Part shown: positions 1,490-64,000 of the stretch, in pieces
Layout: the number at the start of each line of letters is the position of its first letter
How positions within the stretch are numbered: position 1 is the first letter of the stretch
Source: a virus
Virus record (IMG/VR): IMGVR_UViG_3300021963_000115
Coordinates: 3,487-67,486 of that record
Length of the DNA stretch: 64,000 nt
Direction: 5' to 3' (one strand)
Program-made: the position numbers and the translations under genes
Notes under the pieces: model-generated
What the model was told of the DNA's origin: nothing
What the model saw: only the letters and a program-made list of their open reading frames with translations
Databases searched by the model: none

Positions 1490-1591
1490 TTAAGCCCTCC
1501 AATAAAATAAATCTAACAACACAACAATCAGACCGAGTAAGAACACTACTCGCTCCACCTTATCAATCAATGTCCAATCATTCCAACTCAT
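1490..1591 (-). CDS. small membrane peptide (33 aa)
   Basis: MSWNDWTLIDKVERVVFLLGLIVVLLDLFYWRA; GGAG SD; fills the gap with an ATGA overlap; below ORF-track cutoff. Confidence 0.55.
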   Translation of the reverse strand: MSWNDWTLIDKVERVVFLLGLIVVLLDLFYWRA

Positions 1592-2571
1592 TTGATTCTC
1601 CTTCCATTTGAATAAAACGGTACGCCTACATCTACTGCCACTTGTTTGAATGGCTTTGTCAGTTGATACAGATACGCACCGCGCAACTTATGCTCAAGTT
1701 TTTCACGGTCAGGGTATGTGATCTGAACCGTGTGGTTGCCCCCGTCCCAAGTGTGCTGAAAGTCAGTATGAGTATGGAACAGCGCTTCAACCATGTTCAT
1801 CCACTTCTCACCATACTCCTCACCATCTTGGCGTACTAACCAATTGGCTTGGTCTAACCTTTCACGCATGTCATGCCTAAAAGACCAAGTTGAGACAAGA
1901 TTCTCATCCGTAGTTACAAACGGACTCATGATCTCGTAGTAATCTAAGAACGGCTTAAGTTCTTGTCGTACCTTCTTCGCCTTCTCAGTATCAATCAACA
2001 ACTTGTGTTCAGCCAAGCCACCAATAACTTCAAAGAATCTCTTGCCATTACTTTCGTACGGTACGAATCTCATGTGCTGTCCGTCTTGGAAGTAATACTT
2101 CTTCGTCCCATCAGGTTGGTCTGCAACGATGTACTGTTTAGCACCGAACCTTGCAAAGCCAAGACCCGTAGGCAACAACGCTCCAAGTGTGTGCCATGTG
2201 ACATAGTTGCTCATCCATTGAGGCGTAAACTCAAACCGCCCATCAGGGTACGCCATGAGCAATGGCTTGTACTCTTTGTAGTAACTTGTGACTGTGGTCT
2301 TGCCTGTCTTTGGATCGCGTTGATGTTGTGTAGGGTACACCATGGCAAACGCCATACCGTATCTGTCACCATCTTTATGCCACACCTCAAATGTGCGATG
2401 ACGGTCAGTCAATGGACGATGATCTGTAATGCCATGCTTTACACGCTGACCCATCAACGGCTTAACACTCTCATACTTCTTCTTGGTTGTTTCATAATCA
2501 TCCATGCGTATGTGATACCCACGGTAGAACGCGAGTGAATATGTTTGGGTTGGTTTTGGAATTGCTTTCAT
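1588..2571 (-). CDS. hypothetical early protein (327 aa)
   Basis: long ORF with AAAGGA SD; contains a palindrome copy at 2052. Confidence 0.8.
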   Translation of the reverse strand: MKAIPKPTQTYSLAFYRGYHIRMDDYETTKKKYESVKPLMGQRVKHGITDHRPLTDRHRTFEVWHKDGDRYGMAFAMVYPTQHQRDPKTGKTTVTSYYKEYKPLLMAYPDGRFEFTPQWMSNYVTWHTLGALLPTGLGFARFGAKQYIVADQPDGTKKYYFQDGQHMRFVPYESNGKRFFEVIGGLAEHKLLIDTEKAKKVRQELKPFLDYYEIMSPFVTTDENLVSTWSFRHDMRERLDQANWLVRQDGEEYGEKWMNMVEALFHTHTDFQHTWDGGNHTVQITYPDREKLEHKLRGAYLYQLTKPFKQVAVDVGVPFYSNGRRIK

Positions 2572-2643
2572 GGTTTTCCTTTCTAAAAAATTAAATGGGA
2601 AGGTTTCGTACTGTACGAAACCACCCTCAGAGATACCTGTAAC

Positions 2644-3825
2644 TCAGTCTACATAGATGACTGCGCCAGTAGTAGGCTTGGGCTTGTACCCACCGACAAC
2701 ACACCACAACACGGGGTGCTCCCACTTGCCCCAACTACCAACATAACCATCGGTCAACACTACAACACACTCGGGCTTGATGCCACGATCCTTGATGTAC
2801 ACGGGGATACACGCAGGATCAGTACCACCGCCACCCGCAGGTTTGGTAGAGCTTGTCAACTTATCTTGCCGATCACGGGCATACACCTCATGACCTGCGA
2901 CCTCTGTGTCCCAATACAACAGATCAACAAGTTCAGGTGAGACATTGGCACAGATAGATTGCACCTCGGTCAGAAACTTATTTAAGTCCTCACCACCGAT
3001 AGAGCCTGATGTGTCAATGGCAATACAGATACGACCCATACTCTCGGACACAGTAGAGGGCATGTACATATCGTGCTGTAACCATCTACGGTTAACGCGT
3101 TGCCATGTGGATATATCCTTACCATCTGCAAGCGATGAGATGAAGTCACGCAACTGTTCACGCCAGTCAACCTTGGGTTCGAGCAATGCACCGATCTCAC
3201 GGGACAAGTTACCACCCATCTTGCCTGCATGTATTTGACCCTGACGGATTGCTTGGTTCACTTCCTTGATGTGATCCTCAATCTCTTGCTGTGTCATGTC
3301 GCCTGTGTCCCAATCATGAGAGTCAAAGCCACCCGCACCTTCGTCACCCTCATCACCACCACTACCCCCACCACCTTGCTTGAGGATATTGAACACTTCC
3401 TGTGAGTCCATGCCACGGAACTTCTCATTGAGTAAGCCCATCTTGGGTAATACAACAAACCCATTCGTTGCCTTCTCAATATCTTTGATGATGAGGTTGA
3501 TCACATAGTCACACGCCATGTTTGCACACTTGGCATGTTCCTCATACAGATGCTTCCACAAGAATGTATGCTGAAACAACTTGTGCAGATTCTCATGCAG
3601 GATCACGCCACGCAACTCACCATCGGGCAGAGATTCAACAAACGCTTTGCCGTAGATACAGTCGATGCCATTGGTACAAGCTGTTGGTACATCTTCGTCA
3701 ACCTTGTACTTGCCTACCATGATGATGGATGCGTACTCCATCGTATGCTTGTGTGCCATTAACTCTACATGGGCACGCTCAATGCGCTTAAGCGCAGATA
3801 AAGATTGTGTTGCTGTTACGAACAT
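2644..3825 (-). CDS. HExxH metallopeptidase-like + vWA domain protein (DUF2201-type)
   Basis: PTACTNG, ILHENLH (HExxH), N.A.D..IN, G/D-rich linker, MIDAS DTSGS, GGGGT, VLTDG. Confidence 0.85.
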   Translation of the reverse strand: MFVTATQSLSALKRIERAHVELMAHKHTMEYASIIMVGKYKVDEDVPTACTNGIDCIYGKAFVESLPDGELRGVILHENLHKLFQHTFLWKHLYEEHAKCANMACDYVINLIIKDIEKATNGFVVLPKMGLLNEKFRGMDSQEVFNILKQGGGGSGGDEGDEGAGGFDSHDWDTGDMTQQEIEDHIKEVNQAIRQGQIHAGKMGGNLSREIGALLEPKVDWREQLRDFISSLADGKDISTWQRVNRRWLQHDMYMPSTVSESMGRICIAIDTSGSIGGEDLNKFLTEVQSICANVSPELVDLLYWDTEVAGHEVYARDRQDKLTSSTKPAGGGGTDPACIPVYIKDRGIKPECVVVLTDGYVGSWGKWEHPVLWCVVGGYKPKPTTGAVIYVD

Positions 3826-3894
3826 AATGATTTCCTTTCATGGTTAAAGATGTTGAGGGTTTCGTACTGTACGAAACCCCCCGGGTTACTGCTA

Positions 3895-4974
3895 TTACTT
3901 ACGAGCAAACAAGTAGTTGTTGTCTGCCGCCCACTTAGCGAACTTGGGATTAGTTGCCGCAACTGTACGCTTGGGACACATATCGGACATGACGCTACGA
4001 GCGAACAAGCCTTGTGCTTCCTTAGACATACGGGGTAAGAACTGCATCCAAGCATCCATAGTGTTCTTCTCAATACGCTGTACTGCCTTGGCAATCAACA
4101 TACAACCCGCAGGGGCAGATGATGGGACAGTCGCTGTATCGGGTGACTTGATGAGATCATCCCAGTTAGTGAGCTGTGTGTCCAACTTCACCATCGTCAA
4201 GATGTTGTGCATTGCCTTCTCACCCACAGTACCCTTCAGGGCATGGCACATCACATCATCACCCAAGATCATGGTGCGCTTGATCACATCAGATGCTGTC
4301 TCTAAAGATCGTGGTGTAACAAACGCCATACGAATATCACGGGGGTCATTGATGTATGTATTCTGACGCGGATCTTCGTAGTCCTCAAACGATGCCAACA
4401 TCTCAGGGAACTCTTGCACAGTAGCAATGATGACTGGATGAAAGCCGTTGTTGATGCCGTACTGCATAACTTCTTCAGCACTAGGCTTGGCAACACGAAC
4501 TTGGATCACACGGTTACGGGCATGTGGTGGCACATTGTCACCGATACCCTCGACCGTCAAGTTGGTAGTCGCAAACAAGACACCCTCCAAGTCCCATATA
4601 CCCAATGAACGCTCTTGCATTAGTTTCAAGCAAGCATTGAGTACACCGCCCTTGGCTTTGCCGATCTCGTCAAGCATCATCACAACCTTCTTACCCTTGA
4701 AGTGCAAGCCGAACTCCTCGTTAGGCACAAAGCGACACACCTCATTGCCGTCAATGTCCTTGATCTTCGGAACCATGAAGTCACCAACATCTTTGGTAGT
4801 GATGTCAACATAGCAGAAATAGTGATCCTTAAACTCAGGCTTGTTGCGTAGCATCTTCAGGATAGATGACTTGCCAATACCCATCTCACCCTGTGCCAAC
4901 ACAGTACGCAGGTCACCAACAGCGGCAATTAAGTCAGCGGTTTGGGACAAAGACAAAGATTTATACATAGACAT
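3895..4974 (-). CDS. MoxR-like AAA+ ATPase
   Basis: Walker A GEMGIGKS, Walker B MMLDE, ATTN, ARNR, TPRS; adjacent to the vWA gene. Confidence 0.85.
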   Translation of the reverse strand: MSMYKSLSLSQTADLIAAVGDLRTVLAQGEMGIGKSSILKMLRNKPEFKDHYFCYVDITTKDVGDFMVPKIKDIDGNEVCRFVPNEEFGLHFKGKKVVMMLDEIGKAKGGVLNACLKLMQERSLGIWDLEGVLFATTNLTVEGIGDNVPPHARNRVIQVRVAKPSAEEVMQYGINNGFHPVIIATVQEFPEMLASFEDYEDPRQNTYINDPRDIRMAFVTPRSLETASDVIKRTMILGDDVMCHALKGTVGEKAMHNILTMVKLDTQLTNWDDLIKSPDTATVPSSAPAGCMLIAKAVQRIEKNTMDAWMQFLPRMSKEAQGLFARSVMSDMCPKRTVAATNPKFAKWAADNNYLFARK

Positions 4975-5075
4975 GATTGATTCCTTTCAAAGAATAAAAA
5001 CAACTAACACAAATAACTAACACACAACAACTTACACAATGAGGGTTTCGTACTGTACGAAACCCCCGACCTAAC

Positions 5076-5945
5076 TCAGAACGCAAACTTATCGAGCATG
5101 GCATCGACCTTGTTCTTGGTCTGCTCACGCAACATATCCGATTCACGCAATGACTGTGCATCTACATGACGCATGGTGTCCTCCAACTCCATACGCATGG
5201 CTTCCAACTTCAGATCACCGCTGATGTTGAAGTGCTTGAGTAACTGACACAACTCAACAGCGTTATCGACAAGCGAGTCACGGAAAATCTTGCGCTTGCC
5301 CTCATCTGTATCTGCAAGACGCTCAGACATGGCAGTCAACACACCATGCAGTCTGTCCCACGCATCACGCATTGCATCATTGAGCCGTGATGACAACACA
5401 CCCTCGTAATGTGTCTGCATCTCACGCAAGCCTTCCTCACCAATATCTACACGGAAGTCACCCGCCATTGGCAATGGTGTAAACGCATAGCGAAAGCCGA
5501 ACTTACTGATGATCTGATCACGGTGCGGATAGTCCTCACGATTGAATAGATCACCCAGTTGGAAAGCCGCGGCGGCAACAAGCGTGTCGTACTCATTGAG
5601 AAAGTTGTTGACAGATGTTGCGAACTGAGTCTCGAACTCGGACAGTCTTGACTTGTAGTCAATGAACGATGCCATGTTCAGCACACGATCACCGTTGTCA
5701 CCCCATGGCTGTGTGACTGTGTAGTGCCATGTACGAATCGCGCTTGCAACCTTGTTGATCTCCTCCAACTTGCCCGAGCCTGCCAACAGATTCTTGTTGT
5801 AGTTGCCCGCCCGAGTCTTGGTTGACTTGGCTTGGTCAACTTCTTCAGACACACGCTTGTCCAACTTGCGCCCTGTCCATACAGACATAGACAGATTGAC
5901 GATCAGGGCAGAGCCTGACAACTTAGATACATTTACTTGTTCCAT
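5076..5945 (-). CDS. DUF3150-like coiled-coil protein
   Basis: W.GRKLD, T.PW, LGDLF...DYP and C-terminal IFRDSLV..LKHFNI pattern of proteins found beside phage AAA/vWA pairs. Confidence 0.65.
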   Translation of the reverse strand: MEQVNVSKLSGSALIVNLSMSVWTGRKLDKRVSEEVDQAKSTKTRAGNYNKNLLAGSGKLEEINKVASAIRTWHYTVTQPWGDNGDRVLNMASFIDYKSRLSEFETQFATSVNNFLNEYDTLVAAAAFQLGDLFNREDYPHRDQIISKFGFRYAFTPLPMAGDFRVDIGEEGLREMQTHYEGVLSSRLNDAMRDAWDRLHGVLTAMSERLADTDEGKRKIFRDSLVDNAVELCQLLKHFNISGDLKLEAMRMELEDTMRHVDAQSLRESDMLREQTKNKVDAMLDKFAF

Positions 5946-6039
5946 GATATTTCCCTTTCATATTTCATTACATTTCAATATGCTTTCGTACTGTACGAAA
6001 CTATATCTACTTACACACAATACTACCTAACCAACCCAT

Positions 6040-6068
6040 ATTATAACAGATTGATACAACCATGTCAA
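6040..6068 (-). promoter_or_regulatory. consensus sigma70 promoter
   Basis: TTGACA (6068-6063), 17-nt spacer, TATAAT (6045-6040). Confidence 0.85.
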
Positions 6069-6072
6069 CCTA

Positions 6073-6255
6073 TTACTTGTTAGCAATATGTTGCTTATAG
6101 TCTTTGATCAAACGCTCACGATCCTCATCATCTTCAAGAAAATGCTGAACGAATCGTTTTGCCATGTGCAACTCCCGCTTGGCGTCGATCAAGAAACCTG
6201 TAACCACAATCGCCCATGCCAATAGCACGAACTCTGTTGCTGTAAATTCAATCAT
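6073..6255 (-). CDS. small membrane protein
   Basis: GGAGG SD; MIEFTATEFVLLAWAIVVTGFLI TM helix. Confidence 0.65.
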   Translation of the reverse strand: MIEFTATEFVLLAWAIVVTGFLIDAKRELHMAKRFVQHFLEDDEDRERLIKDYKQHIANK

Positions 6256-6376
6256 GCTTACCTCCATTAAAGATGTTGCGTAATACCCACCGAGCATCAA
6301 TGCGACTGGCAAACCATTTGCTCAATCGTTGGCACTCGTACCCTTCACACTCATCCTGCAATAACCCGTACGTCAT
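6248..6376 (-). CDS. hypothetical protein (42 aa)
   Basis: GGAGG SD; MTYGLLQDECEGYECQRLSKWFASRIDARW...; fills the gap. Confidence 0.5.
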   Translation of the reverse strand: MTYGLLQDECEGYECQRLSKWFASRIDARWVLRNIFNGGKHD

Positions 6377-6593
6377 TCTTTTCCTCCTGTTCTGTCCATT
6401 CCATAAAAGCTAACAACTCTTCAAAGTTGTAGCAGAACCTACCCTTCATGTCGTAGAACCGCCATGTGTCACAGTTCGCACACCCTGCTTCGTACGAACG
6501 GCATCGCTTGGATTGACTGGCACGCAGAAACTTAAAGCCATGCTCAACCACATACTTAGACTTGGCACGCTTGCGTATGTCTCTCACTTTCAT
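6351..6593 (-). CDS. hypothetical Cys-containing protein
   Basis: AAGGAG SD; MKVRDIRK...C..Y..GC.NC.TW. Confidence 0.6.
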   Translation of the reverse strand: MKVRDIRKRAKSKYVVEHGFKFLRASQSKRCRSYEAGCANCDTWRFYDMKGRFCYNFEELLAFMEWTEQEEKNDVRVIAG

Positions 6594-6772
6594 TTGATTT
6601 CTCCTTCTTCCAAATACAGCGCTGTGTCGTGCCAAAGTTGTGTGTCCTCGGGTGTCCCATTTATCTCAGCGATAAATGCCTTAGCCTTCGCTTCATCCGT
6701 AAACACAGCACCGTGTGGGTGTCCTTCGTAGTACGGGTCGTCACACGGACGGCAAATAATCCAACATTTCAT
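6590..6772 (-). CDS. hypothetical protein
   Basis: AAGGAG SD, coupled stop/start. Confidence 0.6.
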   Translation of the reverse strand: MKCWIICRPCDDPYYEGHPHGAVFTDEAKAKAFIAEINGTPEDTQLWHDTALYLEEGEIK

Positions 6773-7005
6773 ATATCACTCCTTAAATTCTTTTGGTTTG
6801 TTTGTGTCAGGGTACGCTTTGCCGCATCAGATGTGACGAACATATACCCGCCCTTGCCATACTCTTGCACCACCGTCCACGACTTGCGCTCTATTCGTGC
6901 GGCTTCCTCACCGCAGAACAAGCACAACTTGTAGCCTCGTTGCCACCGTTCAATGTGTATGTCATCACCACACTCACGGCACTCTCTCCAATCAGAATGG
7001 AACAT
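6769..7005 (-). CDS. C4 zinc-finger protein (DksA/TraR-type finger)
   Basis: CRECGDDIHIERW..GY.LCLFC; GAGGAG SD. Confidence 0.65.
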   Translation of the reverse strand: MFHSDWRECRECGDDIHIERWQRGYKLCLFCGEEAARIERKSWTVVQEYGKGGYMFVTSDAAKRTLTQTNQKNLRSDI

Positions 7006-7363
7006 CTTGCATCTCCTCATTAACTTTCGTACTGTACGAAATCAAACCAACCGATCCATACATCTGCACAGTCTGCATATCCTCCAAGCACAATGGTATG
7101 GTTGGTACGCATGGATGTAACTGCGTCTTGTGCTTAGATGTTGTACGGCTGTACTTGGTGCTGTTCTCGTACCATGTGTCCGACAATGGCTCGTACACAA
7201 ACAATGGGAAGTTGTAGCGATACGAATACACCACATACCGTTTCACAATATCTGCGCCCACGCCCTGTTCGTACCACTCACTCCAAATGTTCGAACCCTT
7301 GAACACTTCTAACTTGCGCACATACTCCCGTGCTTTGCCATTGGCAATGTACTTTGCACTCAT
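6992..7363 (-). CDS. hypothetical protein (alternative start 7420)
   Basis: AAAGGAG SD; YVVYSY...PL.....W.....YS.TTSKH. Confidence 0.7.
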   Translation of the reverse strand: MSAKYIANGKAREYVRKLEVFKGSNIWSEWYEQGVGADIVKRYVVYSYRYNFPLFVYEPLSDTWYENSTKYSRTTSKHKTQLHPCVPTIPLCLEDMQTVQMYGSVGLISYSTKVNEEMQDVPF

Positions 7364-7422
7364 GTAATCTCCTTTTCTAAAACTTGTTACTACAAATAAT
7401 CTCTGCCCTGATTCGCTCATAC

Positions 7423-7653
7423 TTATTTACTTTCGTACGGTACGAAACGATTTGCTTCCCACGATGCCACATTACGTTCCCGCAAGTGGTGCTTGTACAA
7501 CTCACTACTAACCTTAGTGAATTCATCATGCCCATACTTGCGCATCATTGCCGTTACACAATCCACGGCAAACCGTGAATTAAAAAACGCCACCCTGTCA
7601 TACACCATCAGGGCGGCAATGAAGTCCGTCAACTCGTAATCTGATTTAGTCAT
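7423..7653 (-). CDS. hypothetical protein
   Basis: coupled ORF with AAAGGA SD. Confidence 0.6.
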   Translation of the reverse strand: MTKSDYELTDFIAALMVYDRVAFFNSRFAVDCVTAMMRKYGHDEFTKVSSELYKHHLRERNVASWEANRFVPYESK

Positions 7654-7913
7654 TTGATTAGTCCTTTCTCATACATTTGTTTAAGCATTGATGAATGGAT
7701 AACTGAGTACCCTAACTTCGCACCTTGCTCGTTCATCCAATGGGCTTCACCCTCCACCGACAGATCAAACTCCCCTTCTCTGTAACAGCAATGGGTTACT
7801 GCGGTTGTGTATGTCATGCCTGAGTCAAACCAAAATCCATCAGGTGCAACGCACCCATAGAAGTTGTCGGTCGAGTGCATCCGATTAAATTCTTTCCATG
7901 TTTTCATTTCCAT
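7650..7913 (-). CDS. hypothetical protein
   Basis: coupled ORF with AAGGTG SD. Confidence 0.6.
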   Translation of the reverse strand: MEMKTWKEFNRMHSTDNFYGCVAPDGFWFDSGMTYTTAVTHCCYREGEFDLSVEGEAHWMNEQGAKLGYSVIHSSMLKQMYEKGLIK

Positions 7914-8086
7914 TCACCTTTCATTAACTTCTGTTCGTCACGTCTAGCAACTTTCAACGCTTTCGTACGGTACGAATCTGTCTTGACATTATTCTGTCGG
8001 TCAGAAGTTGTATCCGTAACAAAGCCACACCACAACATCTTGTCACGATGTTTGTTATTGATTAGCTTGCGCTCCAGTTTGTTCAT
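7904..8086 (-). CDS. hypothetical protein
   Basis: GAAAGGA SD. Confidence 0.55.
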   Translation of the reverse strand: MNKLERKLINNKHRDKMLWCGFVTDTTSDRQNNVKTDSYRTKALKVARRDEQKLMKGEWK

Positions 8087-8098
8087 GATGAAGTCCTT

Positions 8099-8353
8099 TC
8101 AGGTTGTAAATTCGTACACGATGCCCACATCAGCGGTATTTACAGAAAACCGCTTTGCTTGCTTAACTTCGTTGGCGATGCGCTCAAGATAGTCTGGGTA
8201 CTTTTTGCGTTCGTATTCACCCAAACTCACATCATTGGCAATGATGCGCTCACATTCAGCATCGGTGTATGCAATAACAAGTTGCACACCACCATACTCA
8301 GACGATGGAAAGGGTTTCCAATAGTCCACGATGTAAAGGGTCGGAGTTTTCAT
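8099..8353 (-). CDS. hypothetical protein, first ORF of the early operon
   Basis: GAAAGGACTTCATC-ATG; MKTPTLYIVDYWKPFPSSEYGG. Confidence 0.7.
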   Translation of the reverse strand: MKTPTLYIVDYWKPFPSSEYGGVQLVIAYTDAECERIIANDVSLGEYERKKYPDYLERIANEVKQAKRFSVNTADVGIVYEFTT

Positions 8354-8369
8354 GATGAAGTCCTTTCGG

Positions 8370-9105
8370 TTGGTTGATTGAATAGTGGTCATGACGCCAC
8401 CGCATAGCACACGGTCAAGTGTGCTACACGCTATCGTCTCTGCGGTTACCCGCTGTCGTATTTGGTAGTTCTCTTTGTTTGGTTTGGCGTTACTAACTGC
8501 GATAGTGTTTGTCGTTGCCACATCTCCCATTCGTACGGTACGAACGGCTTGGCTTCCTAGTGGTTGTTGGTATGTGTTCGGTCGGTGTTCTAAGGTGTGC
8601 TATCGGTTTCCCGTAGACTTATCACCCATGATCAAAGTGTATTGAACATGACTCTCACATACATACTCCACATTAGGGCTGTTGCGTCATTAGCGCAGAG
8701 CAACCCACACATTTAGGCAGTATCTACATTAGCTTGCACTTCGCTATCGTTAAGTTGTATTAGGGGTTGACGCACGCCTATCCTAAATTTAAACAACCAA
8801 CTACACCACAAAATGCCCCGACTGACTACGGGACGCCTATTCACGCATGGAAGGTATCGGGGGTTGATCTGACTTGCGTCTATGTGTCGTGGGCTTCGCA
8901 ATCCATCCTACACATAACAACCTGTCCACCTGTGAGCTTCTATCATCAAGACAGCGGCGGTTTAATTTACTGCGGTTACCTCAACTTTCGTACAGTACGA
9001 AAGCCAAAGATGCGTGCAGAGTGTTTATGCAAATTTTTAAAGAGCGTGTGGTTTACCACCACTTTCGTACAGTACGAAAGCGTCATACGGAAATGTTCCG
9101 AATGA
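8370..9105 (-). ncRNA. candidate long structured untranslated leader / ncRNA
   Basis: downstream of a perfect promoter, no SD-led ORF, nested long-range complementarities and many hairpins. Confidence 0.45.
9031..9046 (-). promoter_or_regulatory. boxA antitermination element
   Basis: CGCTCTTTAAAAATTT, near-identical to rrn boxA GCTCTTTAACAATTT, preceded by a GTGG-TAAA-CCAC hairpin. Confidence 0.65.
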
Positions 9106-9111
9106 GCCTTA

Positions 9112-9140
9112 ATTATACTAGGTTTACGCTACCTTGTCAA
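9112..9140 (-). promoter_or_regulatory. consensus sigma70 promoter (major early promoter)
   Basis: TTGACA (9140-9135), 17 nt, TATAAT (9117-9112). Confidence 0.85.
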
Positions 9141-9190
9141 GCTGTTACTAGTTAGGAAAAGGGGGTTATGTGGGGTGTTAAATCTATTTA

Positions 9191-9507
9191 ATTCTGCAAT
9201 ATTCTAGAGGGGAGAATAAAGCTAAGTTGTTGATTCGTAAGGCTTTTTTGATGGTTTTTTTTGTTTTATTCTATTATTCTCGGTTTTTGGGGTTATGCGA
9301 GCAAATAAGCAAAGAGAGATCGAGAGTGCAAGAATCTATGCAAAAACATCTGTGTGCATACACATGAAGATATGCAAATGTGCAAAATAAAATTGGGGTG
9401 TATATATATATTTTTAAAGAATAATAGAATAATAGGGGGGAAAACTCTCGCAAGTGCTTGATTTCATTGGGTTTTATATTATTCCCGTGCAGAGAATATT
9501 GCAGAAT
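9191..9507. repeat. nested inverted repeats with two IHF consensus sites (origin/packaging-like element)
   Basis: 15-bp IR 9191-9205/9493-9507; 15-bp IR 9266-9280/9418-9432; WATCAANNNNTTR on minus strand at 9223-9235 and 9451-9463; central TA run. Confidence 0.7.
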
Positions 9508-9575
9508 AATTAGCGAGTAATACGGCATCGTATCAGCTTTACATTTCGTACAGTACGAAAGTTCTAAGTTTCAGC

Positions 9576-9795
9576 ACGACCCACAATAAGGTTACAGGTT
9601 TCGTACGGTACGAAAGTCAAGATGGCACAAGTAGTAGTATCTGTAACACAACATAGTGATATGTAGTACGACCCACAGTAAGGTTACAGGTTTCTGTTAT
9701 GTTTCGTACGGTACGAAAGGTTGAGGGGTGTTGTGCGCCCCACGATGCGTGTACTGCCCACATCTTGTACGGCACGCAATGAGGTTACAGGTTTC
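9576..9795. repeat. three direct repeats with core AGGTTACAGGTTTC
   Basis: ACGACCCACARTAAGGTTACAGGTTTC at 9576 and 9668; core again at 9782. Confidence 0.85.
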
Positions 9796-9831
9796 AAAGG
9801 CACGGCTGAACCATGCCTAAAGATTTTGGAC

Positions 9832-9865
9832 AAAAAAAAGCCCCAACCTTTCGGTCAGGGCTTTT
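9832..9865 (-). terminator. intrinsic terminator
   Basis: GCCCTGACC-GAAA-GGTTGGGGC followed by T8 on the minus strand, just after the 9877 stop. Confidence 0.8.
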
Positions 9866-9876
9866 GGGGCTGAGGT

Positions 9877-10383
9877 TTATTTCAGCTTGATGCCTTCGGC
9901 TTCAAGATAAGACTTGATGCCTTCGAGCAAGGTTTCGAAGTCAGCATTTTCATAACCCGACTGTAAGTCATTGATGAAGCCTTCGAAGTCAGCATCGCGG
10001 TAAACTGTTGCCAGCTTGTCCGCAAACTCTTTTTTACCTTTGGCGGCTTTGGCGGCGCCGCCTTTGGCTTTGGCACGTTGCAGATTCCAGTCGGTGACTG
10101 GCTTGCCAGTTGCAACCGCTTGCTTGAAAGTAGGCAAGTAGGTTTTCTGCGCTGTGCTCTGGGTTAAACCAGACGCCATGCAACCATCAACAAAGGCGGT
10201 GGCTAAACCGCATCCAGTACCATCTTTTTTGTAGATACCAACCTTTGCCTTAGCTTCGAAAAGCTTTGCAATGTTCACATTAGCCGATTCGCGCAAAGCA
10301 TTTGCCTTGCCTTCGAGTTCGTTAATTGCACCAACAGCGACGCCAACTTGTTGCGCCAAGGATGTAAGGGAAAGTGTGCTCAT
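9877..10383 (-). CDS. monocistronic hypothetical protein (168 aa) with a K/A-rich linker
   Basis: GAAAGGAAACATC-ATG; own terminator. Confidence 0.8.
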   Translation of the reverse strand: MSTLSLTSLAQQVGVAVGAINELEGKANALRESANVNIAKLFEAKAKVGIYKKDGTGCGLATAFVDGCMASGLTQSTAQKTYLPTFKQAVATGKPVTDWNLQRAKAKGGAAKAAKGKKEFADKLATVYRDADFEGFINDLQSGYENADFETLLEGIKSYLEAEGIKLK

Positions 10384-10835
10384 GATGTTTCCTTTCGTAG
10401 AGCAATCGGGGAAACGACTGTTTCGCAACCGACAACTGAACTGTAACCGAATCAGTATAGTTTGCACGGGATAGCCCTACCCTGACATGATTTTCGTACA
10501 GTACGAAAGCTCGACCCCCCACCACCAAGATATAGGGAATGGTTCCATGGCGCGTATGTGTACTGAGTTTTGCACGTTACATCACCACTTTTTAAATCAC
10601 CCAGTTGTTTTGGCCACCATATATTTGTCACGCTACGAATTTCGTTTGTAGATAACACACCACAACATCTTAAGGGGGGTACCCCCATACGAAAACGTCG
10701 GTACTTATTGACAAGTACCGACACAAAAACACCCCCCGGTAAGGGGACCCAAAAAGGTAGTCGTAAAAATTTTTTGCATTCTGTAAATTTTGGTGGTACA
10801 GTCCGCTTCATTCCCGTTAACTTCGGTGCAAAAAT

Positions 10836-28106: not shown

Positions 28107-28784
28107 ATGGCGATGACTTATGCACAGCTTGTAACGCAAGTATCTGATTATTGTGAGAACACGTTTCCCACAGTTAATATAGACACGTTCATTCGACAGG
28201 CTGAACAGCGCATCTATAACACGGTGCAGCTGGCTAATCTTCGCAAAAATGTTACTGGCACTATCACCGCGACAAACAAATATTTATCAGCTCCAGATGA
28301 TTTTTTATCGGTTTACTCAATTGCGGCTTATCCAGTTGCGGGCGGTGATTACATATATTTGTTGAATAAAGATGTAAACTTTATTCGTGAAGCGTATCCA
28401 AACCCATCATCTACAGGAACACCAAAATACTACGCAATCTTTGGTCCAACCACTACCGCGCTTGGCGCTGTTACCAATGAGTTGTCTTTTATTGTTGGTC
28501 CAACACCTTCAATTGCATATTCTGTAGAGCTGCACTATTACTATTATCCTGAGTCTATTGTGACTGCTGGCCAAACATGGTTAGGTGATAATTTTGACTC
28601 TGCATTGTTATACGGTTCTTTGTGTGAAGCAGCAGTGTTTATGAAAAGCGGGCCTGACGACGCAATGTACACAACATACCAAGCGCGTTATAACGAGGCT
28701 ATGGGCATGCTTAAAAACTTGGGTGATGGCAAACAGCGCGGTGATGCGTACCGAAATGGCCAAACTAGGGTTCCCGCACAATGA
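28107..28784 (+). CDS. second adaptor / tail tubular A-like protein
   Basis: TY..L...V.DY, FI.QAE.RI, G.PKYY, PTP, TWL..N....LLYG.L.EA. Confidence 0.7.
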   Translation: MAMTYAQLVTQVSDYCENTFPTVNIDTFIRQAEQRIYNTVQLANLRKNVTGTITATNKYLSAPDDFLSVYSIAAYPVAGGDYIYLLNKDVNFIREAYPNPSSTGTPKYYAIFGPTTTALGAVTNELSFIVGPTPSIAYSVELHYYYYPESIVTAGQTWLGDNFDSALLYGSLCEAAVFMKSGPDDAMYTTYQARYNEAMGMLKNLGDGKQRGDAYRNGQTRVPAQ

Positions 28785-29203
28785 GCATCGTTCAGACACA
28801 AACGACCAGCTTCAAAGCGGAGCTGTATCAGGGCGTTCACGATCTGACAACAGATGTAATAAAGATCGCTCTGTACACGGCAAATGCAGATTTAAACGCG
28901 AGTACCACCGTGTATTCAACTTCAAACGAGATAGCCGCTACGGGCACGTATGTAGCTGGCGGAGCACAACTTACGCCGATTACGGTATCGTCATCAACAT
29001 CTGATGCAACAGCGTATGTGGGCTTCCCAAACATATCTTGGACTGGTAATATCACAGCACGATGTGCTTTAATTTACAATGCGAGTAAGGGCAATAAAGC
29101 CGTTGCCGTGTTGGACTTTGGATCAGACAAAACGTCTTCTAATTTCACAATCACAATGCCAGCGAATACGTCAACAACCGCGTTGCTTCGCTCTTCATAC
29201 TAA
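28781..29203 (+). CDS. tail-associated structural protein
   Basis: SFK.EL..G.H, KIALY, Y..GG, ALIYN, VLDFG.DK. Confidence 0.7.
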   Translation: MSIVQTQTTSFKAELYQGVHDLTTDVIKIALYTANADLNASTTVYSTSNEIAATGTYVAGGAQLTPITVSSSTSDATAYVGFPNISWTGNITARCALIYNASKGNKAVAVLDFGSDKTSSNFTITMPANTSTTALLRSSY

Positions 29204-29212
29204 GGGGTAATT

Positions 29213-29815
29213 ATGACTAAAGAACTCTCAAGCTTCGGCGACCATGCAGAAGTGACCATGCAATCAAACGTTGCTGGCACTGAGACTGTTGGCATTGAAG
29301 GCGTCTACCACGTAGTTTGCCGCGATGCCGACGGTAACATTAAATGGGAAGATCAGTTCCCAAATCTGGTTAATGCTGTTGGTAAACAGTTGATGCTGGA
29401 CACATTGCTTTCAGGCACAACATACACCACGGTTGGGCCGTTCCTTGGTTTGATTTCTGGCACCGGCCTGACGTTTGCCGCAGCCGATACGCTATCTTCA
29501 AAATCATGGACTGAGTTCATCAATTACACCGTTGGTGGTTCGGCTGTGCGTGGCACTGCAGTCTTTAGCGCCGCGTCTTCTTCAGGTACTACACCGTCCA
29601 ACGTGACAACCAAAACAGCTTCCGCGATTACGTACACCATTACAGGCGCAGGCGGTACAGTGGGTGGTTGTTTCTTAGTGACTGGTGCTGGCGCGGTCAA
29701 CACACAGAGCAGCACTGCTGGTACTCTGTATAGCGCAGGTGCATTTGCCACAGCCAAAGTGACCACTGCTGGTGACACTGTTTCTGTTACCTACGCCACT
29801 ACTGCGACAAGCTAA
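29213..29815 (+). CDS. tail-associated structural protein
   Basis: W.D...NLV...G..L; T/G-rich. Confidence 0.7.
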   Translation: MTKELSSFGDHAEVTMQSNVAGTETVGIEGVYHVVCRDADGNIKWEDQFPNLVNAVGKQLMLDTLLSGTTYTTVGPFLGLISGTGLTFAAADTLSSKSWTEFINYTVGGSAVRGTAVFSAASSSGTTPSNVTTKTASAITYTITGAGGTVGGCFLVTGAGAVNTQSSTAGTLYSAGAFATAKVTTAGDTVSVTYATTATS

Positions 29816-29827
29816 TAGGGGGTTCAA

Positions 29828-32050: not shown

Positions 32051-32060
32051 GGGAAACATC

Positions 32061-32324
32061 ATGGCCCTAAAAATTTCCATCCCCACAAGCAATGTCGGCG
32101 TTCCATTTGCGGAAGCCTACGCCCGTATCACCAATATCTTTGGCAACAAAGATCAGGTGCAGTACCAAGTGTCTGTGTCTGCCAATGCTGATGCTCGTGA
32201 AGCAAACGCCCAAGAGGTCGCACAGCACGCCTTCTATTGCGCCACCCCACAAGGCAACCTGATGGAAGGCTTGTACGCCGACCTGAAACTGCAAGCTGGC
32301 TTTGAGGCCGCAGAGGACTGCTGA
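32061..32324 (+). CDS. fibre-associated small protein (assembly chaperone-like)
   Basis: directly after the fibre; Y..LK...F..A.DC. Confidence 0.6.
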   Translation: MALKISIPTSNVGVPFAEAYARITNIFGNKDQVQYQVSVSANADAREANAQEVAQHAFYCATPQGNLMEGLYADLKLQAGFEAAEDC

Positions 32325-32641
32325 TGGCCCAGATACCATTACTCAATGCGCAAACCGGCACCACCTACACGCTGGTGCTGGCCGATGCTGGAAAGTTTGT
32401 GACGTTGAACAATGCTGCCGCTATTGCATTGACGGTCCCGCTTGAGTCGTCGGTGAACTACGCCATTGGCACATCCATTGATCTTGTGCAACTTGGGGCC
32501 GGTCAGGTAACAGTCGCGGGCGCAGGTGGTGTTACAGTTAACGCAACGCCGGGACTTAAGCTTAGAGCGCAATACAGTGCAGCGACGTTGGTTAAAACCG
32601 CTTCAAACACTTGGGTGTTAGTGGGAGATATAGCCGCATGA
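32324..32641 (+). CDS. fibre-associated beta domain protein
   Basis: NAQTGTTYTLVL.DAG...LRAQYS.ATL.K...NTW.L.GD. Confidence 0.7.
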   Translation: MAQIPLLNAQTGTTYTLVLADAGKFVTLNNAAAIALTVPLESSVNYAIGTSIDLVQLGAGQVTVAGAGGVTVNATPGLKLRAQYSAATLVKTASNTWVLVGDIAA

Positions 32642-33336
32642 GTTTTCTTGGCATTACAGCATCGAATCAACAACGCAAGCCACTGGTGATTACGCAGGGC
32701 TTGACTGTTTATTTGGATGCGGCCAATAGGGCTTCGTATCCCGGCACTGGGTCAACGTGGTTTGATTTGAGTGGTAATGGCAACAATGGCACTTTGGTGA
32801 ATTCGCCAAGCTGGACAACAATTACCAGCGTTCAAACTTTTGCGTTTAACGGTACAAACAACCGTGTTTCGTTTAGTTACCAAACCCCCGTCCAATCAAA
32901 CTCAACTGGGTTTACTTGGGGCGCGTGGATTCGGGCCAACCGAAACTTTGACGGCGACGTTGTAATGGGCTTTCGCGGGACGACTCCATTGGAGTTCTAC
33001 AAAATGACCACCCAAAAGTTTGAAATGTACCCAGCAGAAGTTTTTGCTACGGTTACGCTAACAACGTGGATATACATCTGTGCAGTGTGGAACGGCAGCG
33101 GAACAAGCGGCGGAACAAATATGACTTGGTATCACAATGGCTCTAGTGTTGGATTGCGCGACGCAGACAACCCGGCATTTAGTGCTTCTGCAATGCCGTT
33201 TAACATTGGTGGAGATGCCGCTGCAAACGAATTTTTTCAAGGTTACATAGCGGCAGCACACGTTTACAATCGCGCTCTTTCTGCGGCGGAGGTTAGCGCA
33301 AACTTTGATTCGATGAAAAAATACTACGGGTATTAA
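32638..33336 (+). CDS. LamG/concanavalin A-like lectin domain protein
   Basis: LDAAN..SYPG.G.TW.DLSGNGN.GTL.N ... YNRALS..EV..NF. Confidence 0.85.
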   Translation: MSFLGITASNQQRKPLVITQGLTVYLDAANRASYPGTGSTWFDLSGNGNNGTLVNSPSWTTITSVQTFAFNGTNNRVSFSYQTPVQSNSTGFTWGAWIRANRNFDGDVVMGFRGTTPLEFYKMTTQKFEMYPAEVFATVTLTTWIYICAVWNGSGTSGGTNMTWYHNGSSVGLRDADNPAFSASAMPFNIGGDAAANEFFQGYIAAAHVYNRALSAAEVSANFDSMKKYYGY

Positions 33337-33351
33337 CCCAAAAAGACCATC

Positions 33352-34251: not shown

Positions 34252-34260
34252 GGACACAAC

Positions 34261-35121: not shown

Positions 35122-35124
35122 ATA

Positions 35125-36042: not shown

Positions 36043-36069
36043 ACGAAAAGTCATGCAGTAGGTTTAAAC

Positions 36070-55507: not shown

Positions 55508-55765
55508 TCAGATTGATGATTGGTTGCTTTTTGCTCTGAGTGTCTTGATGACGTTGGCAATCGTTTCTCGCATTTTGGGGTGGGGCATAGTCTTGCCCAA
55601 GAACCACATGTATGCCGCTTGCCTTGATACACCAATATATTCAGCCACATCCTGCACGGGAATGTCGCGTTCAATACATAAGCGCCCAAGTTGCACTCCA
55701 ATATGTTTGGAGTCTGCTTTCCTGTTTGCCTGTACGAACTTACGTGAATAGCCTGTATTGTTCAT
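55508..55765 (-). CDS. Cro/CI-type HTH DNA-binding protein
   Basis: VQDVAEYIGVSRQAAYMWF.G...P. Confidence 0.8.
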   Translation of the reverse strand: MNNTGYSRKFVQANRKADSKHIGVQLGRLCIERDIPVQDVAEYIGVSRQAAYMWFLGKTMPHPKMRETIANVIKTLRAKSNQSSI

Positions 55766-56720: not shown

Positions 56721-56954
56721 TTAAAGGGCGATCCATTCGCCATTGTGATCCACGTACTGTGTATCGAGATTACCGTCACACCATGTAATGATGTGTCCGA
56801 TAGATGGGACTTGTTCTACAAAGAACTTGATAGTCCTTGCCATGTCAGTGCAATTGCCCGCAGGCATGTGAACGTGACCAACATTCTTTAATAGGTCATA
56901 GGTTACGTTTGTAACCTCACACCCAAAGTAGTGGTGATCAATTGCGCTACTCAT
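56721..56954 (-). CDS. hypothetical protein
   Basis: AGGAG SD, coupled ORF. Confidence 0.6.
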   Translation of the reverse strand: MSSAIDHHYFGCEVTNVTYDLLKNVGHVHMPAGNCTDMARTIKFFVEQVPSIGHIITWCDGNLDTQYVDHNGEWIAL

Positions 56955-57127
56955 TTAGTATCTCCTGATGTGTTTGTGATGGTTTCGAGGTCTGAGCGTT
57001 TTACACGCACCTTGTTGCCTACTTTGAAATGTGGAATCTTATTCGCACGGATTAGCGTATAGACCGTTTGTCGAGAGACGCGCAAATACTTTGCAACTTC
57101 TTCAACGGTCAGAGTTTCAACTTCCAT
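56951..57127 (-). CDS. excisionase-family (HTH_17) DNA-binding protein, 58 aa
   Basis: MEVETLTVEEVAKYLRVSRQTVYTLIRANKIPHFKVGNKVRVKRSDL; AGGAGG SD; absent from the ORF track. Confidence 0.85.
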   Translation of the reverse strand: MEVETLTVEEVAKYLRVSRQTVYTLIRANKIPHFKVGNKVRVKRSDLETITNTSGDTK

Positions 57128-62379: not shown

Positions 62380-62695
62380 GATTGCTCCTCTCAATATCTT
62401 TGATTGCGTTAAACTGATTCACCAGCTCATCGTAGTCCGGTACTGTGCGTGCCAATATGTATTCGACACGCCTGATTGCTTCCTCATGTTCTCTAAACGG
62501 GTCAATGTATCTGCCTGAGTACGCGCCCCGTATCGTTGCTCCTGTCGCACCCTGTTGTCCTAGTGCCGTAGTAAGACTAGCGCCAAGATTGTTAGCCTGT
62601 TGTGCGCTGTACTGGTATGAGTCCAACACAGTACTACCCTCTTCCTTTATCGTAGGCATACCAAACATGTTTCGTGGGTCAAGCCAACTCATCAC
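62372..62695 (-). CDS. hypothetical protein
   Basis: GGAGG SD, coupled. Confidence 0.6.
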   Translation of the reverse strand: MMSWLDPRNMFGMPTIKEEGSTVLDSYQYSAQQANNLGASLTTALGQQGATGATIRGAYSGRYIDPFREHEEAIRRVEYILARTVPDYDELVNQFNAIKDIERSNHE

Positions 62696-63330
62696 ACACC
62701 TCCAAACATTTCTTTGAGTGCGATGTGTAACGCACGGGCTTGCTTGACTGTCAGGTTATCAAGCACCTCATCGACACTCCATTCGGTAGTTGTAGGCTTG
62801 GCTTCTGCAATCTTGGCGTTGACTGCCTCATAATCACCCAACAAGTCTGACAATGATTTCTTTTCGTACCGTACGAAAGATCCATCTTGAAACATCGTGG
62901 GTGTTTCTTGTGGGGCTGATTTATTTTGTTTAACTGCGCGTGCATGGGCGGCACGCTCTTTCGCTTGCTTGCGTTTACGCTTTGCCACACTCAACAACTT
63001 CTTACGATTATCTTCAGACACTGCGGTGTACGCATAGATTGAGCGACCATCTACCTTCTCAGGTGCATGTACCCGAGTGACAGAGAAGTTATCTACAAAC
63101 TGTTTGAGCATTGATGATACGAAACTTGGTGGTATGTCAGGGTGCTCCACACTTAGTCGTTGCTTGATCTCAATACTCGTAACCCCGGGTTTGTCTTTGA
63201 TGTAGCCAAGTATCACAGATGTTATAGAGCCTCGTTTTTTTGTTTCCATTTTGATCTCCTGTTGTGGTTGTTGATCTTCGGCATCCCATTGTTGGATAAC
63301 CTTCTTCATTTCTTCAGCTATTGAACCCAT
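62692..63330 (-). CDS. winged-HTH-like protein
   Basis: I..YIKD.PG.T..EI...L......SS.L.Q; contains a palindrome copy. Confidence 0.65.
   Translation of the reverse strand: MGSIAEEMKKVIQQWDAEDQQPQQEIKMETKKRGSITSVILGYIKDKPGVTSIEIKQRLSVEHPDIPPSFVSSMLKQFVDNFSVTRVHAPEKVDGRSIYAYTAVSEDNRKKLLSVAKRKRKQAKERAAHARAVKQNKSAPQETPTMFQDGSFVRYEKKSLSDLLGDYEAVNAKIAEAKPTTTEWSVDEVLDNLTVKQARALHIALKEMFGGV
62862..62878. repeat. 16th copy of TTTCGTACNGTACGAAA
   Basis: TTTCGTACCGTACGAAA inside a coding sequence. Confidence 0.95.
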
Positions 63331-63982: not shown

Positions 63983-64000
63983 TTCTTCTCCTTTGGTGGG

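Follow-up and report, generated by a model that had tools for sequence, protein, structure and literature searches.

An array of 17-bp palindromes that changes in concert with the first early protein of a phage and appears to be its recognition site

In Cluster A mycobacteriophages (L5, Bxb1), stoperators are described as many near-identical sites across transcribed regions, mostly outside promoters, that are read by one phage protein, the immunity repressor, which stops elongation; site consensus and protein vary by lineage and match each other (PMC6550527, PMC9283540). These sites are reported to be asymmetric, oriented with transcription and distributed genome-wide, and the repressor, encoded by temperate phages, to have two domains and to bind as a monomer (PMC6550527, PMC9283540). 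For Cluster O mycobacteriophages, more than 30 genome-wide copies of a 17-bp palindrome (TGTTCGGNNNCCGAACA) with invariant 7-bp arms, a 3-bp spacer and a variable centre have been described, mostly intergenic or near gene starts and with only a handful of imperfect copies; the available text of that description proposes no reader protein (PMC4351075). The uncultured aquatic phage studied here resembles Cluster O, as so described, in carrying a 17-bp dyad with fixed arms, a free centre and few imperfect copies, and differs in that its array is regional and that comparative data give a candidate reader.

In phage lambda, N is the first gene of its early operon and is followed by terminators, and the two hairpin-forming nut (boxB) sites lie in leaders past the early promoters. 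The N protein is small, disordered and arginine-rich, recognises the loop of a 5-bp hairpin, and has a site-specific N-terminal part that differs between related phages. The repressor of the temperate actinophage phiC31 binds conserved inverted repeats (CIRs), 17 bp long and present in many intergenic early-region copies, one of them at the repressor's own gene; we know of no homology between phiC31 and the phage studied here. Cro/CI-type operators of lambdoid phages are 14-17-bp dyads read by dimers of HTH_3 proteins; they are few, they overlap promoters, and specificity modules are exchanged between relatives.

The window, the whole 64,000-nt stretch of DNA that was analysed, was scanned for the palindrome TTTCGTACNGTACGAAA, with 13 exact matches (mean of 0.00 in 100 shuffles) and 16 matches at ≤3 mismatches (shuffle mean 0.33, maximum 2). 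Near copies were three in number, with mismatches at the outermost bases only, and the centre base of the 16 copies (+ strand) was G in six, T in five, A in four and C in one. The 15-nt core was found 16 times across the whole 67,486-nt record, with zero copies in the 3,486 nt beyond the window, and its reversed control gave none. Outside the palindromes the half-site TTTCGTAC occurred a single time, at 59684. Sigma70 promoters were located by consensus scan. The copies and the associated features are as follows (positions in the window).

2052..2068, palindrome copy with one outer-base mismatch, within ORF 1588..2571
2604..2620, perfect copy at the junction of the DUF2201 gene and ORF 1588..2571; GG/CC extension; RNA hairpin of -16.3 kcal/mol
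3860..3876, perfect copy at the junction of the AAA-ATPase and DUF2201 genes; GGG/CCC extension; -18.0 kcal/mol
5046..5062, perfect copy at the junction of the DUF3150-like and AAA-ATPase genes; GGG/CCC extension; -18.1 kcal/mol
5984..6000, perfect copy in the P2 leader, 34 nt past the estimated start and 38 nt ahead of the DUF3150-like start codon
6040..6068, minus strand, promoter P2, TTGACA-17-TATAAT, 12/12 consensus positions
7025..7041, perfect copy in the final codons of ORF 6992..7420; next start codon 19 nt on
7431..7447, perfect copy in the final codons of ORF 7423..7653; next start codon 10 nt on
7961..7977, copy with one outer mismatch, within ORF 7904..8086
8529..8545, copy with two outer mismatches, directly adjoining the start of ORF 8099..8523/8530
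8986..9002, perfect copy, the second in the P1 leader
9063..9079, perfect copy, beginning 27 nt past the estimated start of P1
9112..9140, minus strand, promoter P1, TTGACA-17-TATAAT, 12/12 consensus positions
9544..9560, perfect copy in non-coding DNA beyond the terminator of gene 9877..10383
9599..9615, perfect copy abutting a 30-nt direct repeat
9702..9718, perfect copy adjoining a 30-nt direct repeat
9836..9865, minus strand, strong intrinsic terminator (13-pair stem and T8) directly after gene 9877..10383
9877..10383, minus strand, first gene of the leftward early operon (168 aa), start ATG at 10383 after GAAAGGAAA; proposed cognate binding protein
10440..10475, minus strand, conserved box GCTATCCCGTGCAA (10462-10475), 16 nt, then TACAGT (10440-10445); possible promoter of gene 9877..10383
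10492..10508, perfect copy 108 nt upstream of gene 9877..10383, between a conserved G-rich box and the conserved promoter-like box
62862..62878, perfect outlying copy within ORF 62692..63330, present there only in the studied phage and its closest relative, G001

The first-pass annotation had listed 16 copies, 13 of them perfect and three off at terminal bases, with all four bases at the centre and none in 10.5-62.8 kb; the same counts and coordinates were recovered, and no copy lay between 10508 and 62862 in the whole-window scan. Its placement of copies ~25-50 nt past both perfect sigma70 promoters was borne out at 27 and 34 nt from the estimated starts. The junction copies at 2604, 3860 and 5046, for which it had noted a longer dyad, were indeed intergenic and lengthened by two to three complementary G/C pairs, and the five copies that it had placed inside ORFs encode the same peptides in called ORFs: FVPYE (2052, 7431), SYSTK (7025), SYRTK (7961) and FVRYE (62862). 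The suggestion that 62862 would lie near the others if the genome is circularly permuted was also supported: the record is probably circular, since its final 222 nt repeat positions 1509-1808, and the 16th copy is therefore ~4.9 kb from the copy at 2052. The corresponding distance to the outlying copy in G001 is 5.2 kb.

Arrays of the same kind were found in related phages. Each of 11 complete or near-complete genomes (the studied phage and 10 relatives) carried one palindrome type in 5-16 copies, in an array spanning 5-13 kb from the junction with the small-terminase gene, and 46 of 80 related loci had a palindrome in at least five copies. The arrays always begin where the leftward genes diverge from the terminase genes. 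The palindrome is lineage-specific, with the cores CGTAC, CATAC, CCCAC or CATAT and other palindromes farther out; arm changes between lineages are compensatory, and the sequence is fixed within a lineage. Conservation is all-or-none, with 286 distinct perfect 13-bp cores versus five with one mismatch. The earlier proposal of a phage-specific system confined to the early region agrees with the presence of palindromes in the early leftward operon only, and the palindrome, same or divergent, was confined in this way in 10/10 complete relatives examined.

Placement within the arrays is also conserved. Of the near-consensus promoters within the arrays of 10 genomes, 16/16 are followed by a site whose first base is 27-39 nt past the start, starts being estimates from consensus scans, and no palindrome overlapped a -35 or -10 element in the studied phage or at the near-consensus promoters of its relatives. 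Gene 9877..10383 was bracketed by sites in 48/48 distinct loci, each with a perfect site upstream of the gene (distance 107-308 nt, median 133.5). Where at least 400 nt of flank was available (36 loci), the stop codon was followed by a first site within 1-3 nt in 11 loci and only after 110-658 nt in the other 25.

One gene, 9877..10383, was found to co-vary with the palindrome, and no other conserved gene did so in the genomes compared. Its protein consists of an N-terminal domain (~1-104), a Lys-rich linker and a conserved acidic C-terminal domain. On trees of 52 proteins (two fragments under 150 aa were left out), palindrome type required nine changes on the N-domain tree (minimum 4; shuffled mean 26.7, with 0/200 shuffles that low) and 13 on the C-domain tree. 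In contig G011 the region is present in two copies, co-occurring variants that match at ~100% in their flanks and C-terminal half, diverge strongly over the first ~115 codons and have both flanking sites swapped (CCCAC vs CATAT). Between L030 and L041/L026 the backbone is 97-100% identical and the N-domain only 48-70%, and at each of four sites essentially the core alone has been exchanged. Sites 1-8 kb away change together with the N-domain across intervening DNA that is 97-100% identical. L156/L157 (CATAC) are nested within the CCCAC clade, and their differences from L166 fall mainly in residues 65-104, which are the version of other CATAC/CATAT phages.

These mosaics suggest that specificity maps to residues ~65-104 of the 9877..10383 protein. 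In the long-form clade, residue 81 is T in 13/13 CGTAC phages and V in 8/8 CATAC phages, and residue 65 is V in 12/13 and I in 7/8, respectively, contrasts of which 2-3 are independent (sign test not significant, p 0.5). CCCAC types have KK..Q where CATAC types have small residues. Such swaps would fit direct read-out of G:C versus T:A pairs, an argument that rests on textbook base-contact chemistry. Physical linkage contributes to the co-variation, the gene adjoining the first sites. Because the palindrome and one protein segment change together in relatives, the phage's first early protein appears to recognise the palindrome.

The protein had no match to Pfam, PHROG or PDB families, and no Pfam family was common to its homologues across 24 or 128 members. 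Comparison of its profile (hhalign) with HTH_3 proteins of the same phages gave a probability of 0.25%, and with their excisionase-type HTH proteins a probability under 1%. A recurrent weak similarity to the RNA binder ribosomal protein S7 (residues 50-101, E 0.11-0.13) was not significant. Of the five candidate readers named earlier, the first, 9877..10383, was retained and three were not: 55508..55765 (HTH_3) and 56951..57127 (excisionase-like HTH) showed no co-variation and are absent from several array-bearing genomes, and 62692..63330 is absent from G009 and G010, both of which have arrays.

The preferred reading, to which we assign a probability of about one half, is that the 17-bp palindromes are cognate sites of the 9877..10383 protein, which would bind them as a dimer on DNA rather than RNA and exert stoperator-like control of early transcription, presumably repression. 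This corresponds to the multi-site repressor or roadblock among the mechanisms suggested by the first-pass annotation; its parS-like and DNA-entry or protection options found no specific support. Set against stoperators as described in the cited reports, the likenesses are the many sites (16 here, 5-16 in each of 10 relatives), their transcribed positions off the -35 and -10 elements, and a lineage-specific consensus that matches a candidate protein. The differences are that the sites here are perfect palindromes restricted to the early operon, that no HTH or other known domain could be detected in the protein, and that, unlike the temperate phages concerned, the studied record has no match to integrase PF00589 (the control matched in 14/14 genomes). 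From Cro/CI-type control the arrays differ in having 5-16 sites per genome, placed 27-39 nt past estimated starts and off the promoter hexamers, and in a candidate reader without an HTH_3 signature.

It is possible, though unlikely, that the same protein instead reads an RNA hairpin in early transcripts, as in lambda N/nut, an attenuator or a translational operator, and alters termination, processing or translation. The palindrome can form a hairpin with a 7-bp stem and a 3-nt loop (CNG triloop), the type-specific positions 5, 6 and 8 are base pairs beside this loop, and, with the first site as a possible exception, every site is either within a transcribed leader (+27 to +39 from each strong promoter) or 5-50 nt ahead of a start codon. 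As with lambda N, the sites are in promoter-downstream leaders, gene 9877..10383 heads its operon with a strong terminator behind it (and a site 1-3 nt past the stop in the 11 loci noted above), and the layout of a variable N-terminal and a conserved C-terminal part resembles N proteins; the weak S7-like signal points the same way. Some sites lie in covarying extended stems of -16 to -18 kcal/mol, and flank pairing is enriched: the first position flanking the 17-mer pairs in 43.5% (25% expected), and 103/230 17-mers are lengthened by at least one pair (57.5 expected). A DNA binder that favours symmetric flanks would yield this enrichment equally, however, and the flank pairing shows no sense-strand wobble bias. 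Nor are G.U pairs tolerated in the core, where only one of the five one-mismatch cores is of G.U type in the sense strand (one copy among 291). By itself the 17-mer folds into a weak hairpin (-7 to -8 kcal/mol), no better than shuffles in 4/8 contexts, and no Rfam family was matched. Variation is confined to the loop centre, with none at any of the 16 stem positions, and for most known RNA-hairpin readers the opposite holds; lambda nut differs in this as well as in having two sites rather than 16, and no arginine-rich N-terminus was evident in the alignment of the 9877..10383 family. The change from G:C to A:T goes along with hydrophobic substitutions, which would suit the thymine methyl group, absent from RNA. 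The segment 10440..10475 is a possible promoter of gene 9877..10383; site 10492, being upstream of this promoter-like box, may go untranscribed, which would favour a DNA target.

Binding of the protein to DNA sites for purposes other than transcription control, such as loading or condensing on the early region (parS/ParB-like), marking that region for replication or shielding it from host nucleases, is distinctly improbable. The copies are numerous and regularly spaced, roughly every 0.1-1.3 kb in one genome segment, and an iteron-like, AT-rich region lies among them, but the +27 to +39 promoter placement and the gene-junction placement would be left unexplained. No ParB family was found among 19 proteins scanned against Pfam, and nuclease-inhibitor similarity was likewise absent from the subset of proteins scanned.

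It is very improbable that another host or phage factor reads the sites and that co-variation with 9877..10383 reflects linkage only. The gene does sit between the first two sites, recombination patches could move gene and sites jointly, and the independent contrasts are few; against this stand the concerted switching of sites 1-8 kb away described above, the 40-residue internal segment that by itself tracks palindrome type, the lack of any other co-varying conserved gene and, for a host factor, the two variants in one sample. A purely structural, protein-independent role for the sites (as terminators, as sites of RNase processing or as hairpin promoters of the N4 type for a phage RNA polymerase) is scarcely credible. 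Hairpins can form, T-rich tracts trail several junction copies and DUF2201/ATPase genes are shared with N4-like phages, but structure alone does not require identity within a genome and concerted change between genomes. The phage has strong sigma70 promoters, the search for an RNA polymerase gave none (PF00940 had no match, the control genomes being silent too), and in PHROGs the 2021-aa virion protein resembles DarB, with no PDB sequence match.

Under the preferred reading of a DNA-bound early regulator, the N-terminal domain, chiefly residues ~65-104, would read a half-site, and two protein copies would occupy each site on double-stranded DNA, because the sites have two-fold symmetry with a free centre base. 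The site upstream of the reader's own gene, where that gene and the terminase/late genes diverge, would provide self-regulation; one or more sites would act beyond that gene's stop codon and terminator, one about 30 nt into the leader behind every strong sigma70 promoter of the early genes, and the remainder between genes. Rising levels of the protein would block or modulate host RNA polymerase during elongation across the first ~12 kb of the early operon, and the outcome would be a stoperator-like early switch.

The palindrome TTTCGTACNGTACGAAA was present in 13 exact copies in the window and in none of 100 shuffles; at up to three mismatches there were 16 matches, against a shuffled mean of 0.33 and a largest value of 2. 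Mismatches in the imperfect copies (2052, 7961 and 8529) were limited to the outermost bases, and the centre base took all four values among the copies. A scan of the entire 67,486-nt record for the 15-nt core returned 16 copies, with none in the extra 3.5 kb outside the window, and the reversed control pattern of the core gave no matches in the entire record. The half-site alone was not over-represented (one occurrence outside palindromes). The repeated palindrome reported in the first-pass annotation was thus confirmed by counts against shuffles and by whole-record scanning, as were its extended dyads at three gene junctions, where a GGG/CCC extension was seen, and its five ORF-internal copies, translated as FVPYE, SYSTK, SYRTK and FVRYE. 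The other 11 of the 16 copies are non-coding, and three of the five coding copies occupy the last codons of small ORFs, 10–47 nt ahead of the next start codon. The last 222 nt of the record (window 63779-64000) repeat record positions 1509-1808 at 95-100% identity, which suggests that the genome is probably circular and recorded with an overlap, and would place the outlying copy at 62862 about 4.9 kb from the copy at 2052. A variant or a misjoin may account for the first ~1.5 kb of the record.

Genes running leftwards from 10811, and from 64000 down to 52599, are all on the minus strand, and the terminase and virion genes are on the plus strand; the array therefore spans the ~12 kb nearest the promoters in a long leftward operon, which is divergent from the late genes.

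Features of the window
2644-5945, minus strand: DUF3150-like gene, ATPase, and DUF2201 metallopeptidase/VWA gene, in the leftward block
Leftward block, minus strand: family-A DNA polymerase, SNF2 helicase, PD-(D/E)XK nuclease, DUF927 primase-helicase
9877..10383, minus strand: 168-aa protein, first leftward early gene
9140-9112, minus strand: promoter P1
6068-6040, minus strand: promoter P2
From 10836, plus strand: terminase and virion genes, a block ending in a 2021-aa DarB-like protein
46248-52313, plus strand: the 2021-aa protein that closes the virion module, with a match to PHROG 10089 'DarB-like antirestriction' (E 1.7e-75) over the C-terminal 700 residues

The 2021-aa protein had no sequence match in the PDB. 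No integrase (PF00589) was found in the genome, and no match to a single-subunit RNA polymerase was found there either, a weak result as the control was silent too. The DUF3150-like/ATPase/DUF2201 (metallopeptidase and VWA) trio was kept in all relatives; among cultured phages, the best matches of the DUF2201 protein were in ~78-kb Vibrio phages such as vB_VspP_SBP1 (about 32% identity), which we take to be N4-like.

Eighty related viral loci were retrieved with the DUF2201 protein, and 46 of them carried a palindrome (6-nt arms) in at least five copies. Lineages differed by symmetric changes in both arms; the types are referred to here by their cores (CGTAC, the type of the window phage, CATAC, CCCAC and CATAT).

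Palindrome types of the related lineages
TTTCGTAC-N-GTACGAAA: type of one lineage
TTTCATAC-N-GTATGAAA: type of one lineage
TTTCCCAC-N-GTGGGAAA: type of one lineage
CTTCATAT-N-ATATGAAG: type of one lineage
ATACTGTC-N-GACAGTAT, and TAAACAGCTGTTTA in the more distant relative G015: examples of unrelated palindromes in further-out relatives

Throughout ten complete or near-complete relatives the palindrome was restricted to 5-13 kb in the same place: the array opens in the gap separating the first leftward gene from the small-terminase gene, passes through small variable ORFs and extends as far as the junctions of the DUF3150, ATPase and DUF2201 genes. A copy within 62692..63330 was seen only in the window phage and its closest relative. 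In G015 (L127-L130) six copies of a 13-14-bp palindrome (sites 28162-36141) closely precede ribosome-binding sites and the 168-aa protein has no detectable homologue, a pattern that suggests the array principle retained with another reader. The 74-kb record G001 (L085-L088) has the same virion-gene block at both ends and so exceeds one genome length.

Close copies of the stretch analysed here came from marine, estuary and freshwater metagenomes. The terminase was nearest to those of HTVC023P-type pelagiphages and phage DSL-LC04; the latter was discarded as a match for the early layout, as it has a different layout and no divergent early operon. Neither the first 12 kb (megablast) nor the 168-aa protein (tblastn) matched any of 50,697 phage records, and palindromes, promoters and operators go unmentioned in the main text of the HTVC023P-type genome paper. 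Among bacterial genomes, a single-protein search with the 168-aa protein found one 9-kb contig (CGTAC type, seven sites) binned in an alphaproteobacterial MAG, too weak a basis to name a host. In RNA runs X17-X20 relatives were represented by short contigs alone (share 0.07-0.08), which were uninformative on starts, ends, strand and transcription.

Both 12/12 sigma70 promoters of the first-pass annotation were present on the minus strand. Scanning the early strand of ten genomes at a threshold of at least 10/12 gave 19 promoter-like hits, 16 of them inside arrays, and each of these 16 was followed by a palindrome starting 27-39 nt past the estimated start; the other three were all in the window genome outside the array, in sequence that fell within the scan only after the outlying 16th copy had extended its range. 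No site overlapped a promoter hexamer, the sites being those of leaders and junctions. The first palindrome lies between a G-rich box just upstream (TTGGTGGTGGGGGG, 10515-10528; GGGGGGTGGGG in relatives) and the box GCTATCCCGTGCAA just downstream (10462-10475). Both boxes were conserved over 48 loci covering all four palindrome types, to a degree beyond the needs of a -35 element. The box GCTATCCCGTGCAA, taken with a TAnnnT-like hexamer located 16-17 nt beyond it, looks like part of a putative promoter of the 168-aa protein's own gene, in which case the first site would be upstream of that promoter and not transcribed from it.

Three 30-nt direct repeats (9573-9602, 9665-9694 and 9766-9795; spacing 92-101 nt; minus-strand consensus GAAACCTGTAACCT.A.TG.G.G.CGT.C) are interleaved with three palindromes and followed by a very AT-rich stretch (9150-9540), a layout that looks like iterons with an unwinding region and thus perhaps an origin. 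At this place relatives have a different repeat (GATAACTGTTCCCTC...), which does not change when the palindrome type switches. The ORF 9274..9528 in the AT-rich stretch is almost without homologues and is probably not a gene. The 212-aa protein of 62692-63330 is a candidate reader of the 30-nt repeats; it is fast-evolving (56% identity to its counterpart in a relative, against >90% for the neighbouring genes), with a winged-helix-like N-terminal part and the 16th palindrome in a variable linker.

The first leftward gene, whose real start is the ATG at 10383, was found in 10 of 11 genomes by clustering, with a distant homologue in the eleventh. A search of 1.8 billion proteins at E <= 0.001 placed 145 representatives in the family of its 168-aa product, and 57 more loci were fetched with its profile. 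A perfect palindrome was present 107-308 nt upstream of this regulator gene in 48 of 48 distinct loci; in the 36 loci with enough flank, the first site past its stop codon came after 1-3 nt (11 loci) or 110-658 nt (25 loci). A strong intrinsic terminator stands 3' of the gene (9865-9836 here) and likewise in relatives. Searches of the ESM Atlas returned viral clusters without names (0.93-0.94), the named matches being at chance level (DUF3102, 0.81-0.83; closterovirus coat, 0.84; RegA-like, 0.81), and its profile matched neither the HTH_3 nor the excisionase-type proteins encoded by the same phages. Residues 50-101 twice matched ribosomal protein S7 (residues ~30-79) in profile searches at a non-significant E of about 0.1; the alignment (DG.., F.D, kT.q..l..Fk.aV...kP) looks plausible.

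Palindrome type tracks the N-terminal domain of this protein. From 86 proteins collected, 54 were distinct and two fragments were dropped; on the tree of the first ~100 residues of the remaining 52, palindrome type required nine changes against a shuffled mean of 26.7, and on the C-terminal domain tree 13. A first set of 28 proteins had given five and eight changes, respectively. In the 60,129-nt contig G011 (L124-L126, L134; L030, L179, L185) the assembler joined two co-occurring strains, and each end has its own allele of the regulator region. The two alleles are about 100% identical in upstream flank, C-terminal half, terminator and a second conserved repeat but diverge over the first ~115 codons; one has CCCAC at both flanking sites, the other CATAT at both. 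Between the L030 copy and the related loci L041/L026 the backbone is 97-100% identical and the N-domain 48-70%, and at four sites the exchange is essentially limited to the core bases. The reading that L030 had arisen by natural recombination, leaving its distal sites as 'orphans', was dropped, its contig joining two co-occurring variants. The CATAC loci L156/L157 were placed within the CCCAC clade and differ from their neighbour L166 mainly at residues 65-104, where they have the version of other CATAC/CATAT phages. Within the clade of the window protein, residue 81 is T in 13/13 CGTAC phages and V in 8/8 CATAC phages, and residue 65 is V in 12/13 and I in 7/8, a pattern not statistically significant on its own because only two or three of the contrasts are phylogenetically independent.

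Other readers proposed in the first-pass annotation fared poorly: the winged-helix-like protein of 62692..63330 is absent from relatives G009 and G010, and the HTH_3 protein (55508..55765) and the excisionase-like protein (56951..57127) do not vary with palindrome type and are absent from several array-bearing genomes. Its general proposal and first candidate gene, 9877..10383, were supported by the comparative evidence, and we put the probability that the 168-aa protein is the reader of the palindromes at about 0.8.

The target of this putative reader could be an RNA hairpin instead of duplex DNA. An RNA target would suit the placement of sites in leaders and junctions and never on promoter hexamers, as well as a regulator gene that is first in its operon and followed by a terminator, which recalls lambda N; some sites are within longer stems (-16 to -18 kcal/mol), with covariation of the flanks from lineage to lineage, pairing is enriched 1-3 positions past the 17-mer, and the weak S7 match is the sole recurrent database echo. 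However, the sites are all-or-none, with 286 distinct cores perfect over 13 bp and five one-mismatch copies (one G.U-type change in the sense strand, one in the antisense strand), flank pairing had no sense-strand wobble bias, and the stem is invariant at every position around a free centre. The bare 17-mer is also a weak hairpin, no better than shuffles in four of eight contexts, and Rfam gave no meaningful match. By textbook chemistry, the changes from Thr to Val and Val to Ile with G:C to A:T, and the Lys/Gln residues found with the G-rich CCCAC type, would fit major-groove read-out of duplex DNA. DNA binding is given about twice the odds of RNA binding, both being putative.

If duplex DNA is the target, host RNA polymerase would initiate at the strong early promoters and at the regulator gene's own promoter, and the 168-aa protein would build up and then bind each palindrome as a dimer. 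Binding at the first site would control its own gene and possibly also the divergent late promoter; elsewhere, elongation would be blocked or paused at +30 of P1 and P2 and at gene junctions, so that early genes are shut down or metered. We give this full DNA-dimer-roadblock mechanism an even chance. The near-identical backbones have divergent 'islands' at the sites and at residues ~1-115, as might be expected of selection against mismatched protein-site pairs in freely recombining phages.

Further systems for comparison are lambda N/nut, the phiC31 CIRs and the Cro/CI operators. The present system lacks some defining features of each family tested, and it was therefore filed outside all named families, as an apparent variant of the multi-site operator kind. 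The closest functional analogue in the published text covered is the stoperators of Cluster A mycobacteriophages (PMC6550527; PMC9283540); in contrast to these, the present sites are palindromic and regional, the phage has no detected integrase and the candidate reader is of no known family. Cluster O mycobacteriophages have a formally very similar 17-bp palindrome in >30 copies, for which no reader is named in the text covered (PMC4351075).

It seems unlikely that the 168-aa protein represents a reader class of its own for specific nucleic-acid sequences, with no relation detected to HTH, RHH or other known DNA-binding folds beyond the faint S7 match, and that with its all-or-none palindromes it makes up a 'barcode' by which lytic phages that co-occur and recombine freely are sorted into regulatory incompatibility groups. 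For phages lacking lysogeny this would amount to an equivalent of heteroimmunity, with a specificity switchable by a 40-residue cassette. If the pairing of protein and site holds, widespread uncultured ~60-kb aquatic phages would have a defined early-gene control circuit made of one unannotated protein family and its sites. The natural specificity swaps on hand, which span four types of site, one segment of 40 residues and the individual positions 65 and 81, would provide a ready-made set of orthogonal protein-site pairs. The same pairing would be a case of co-adapted loci kept together against recombination, and would extend stoperator-like control beyond the temperate actinophages.
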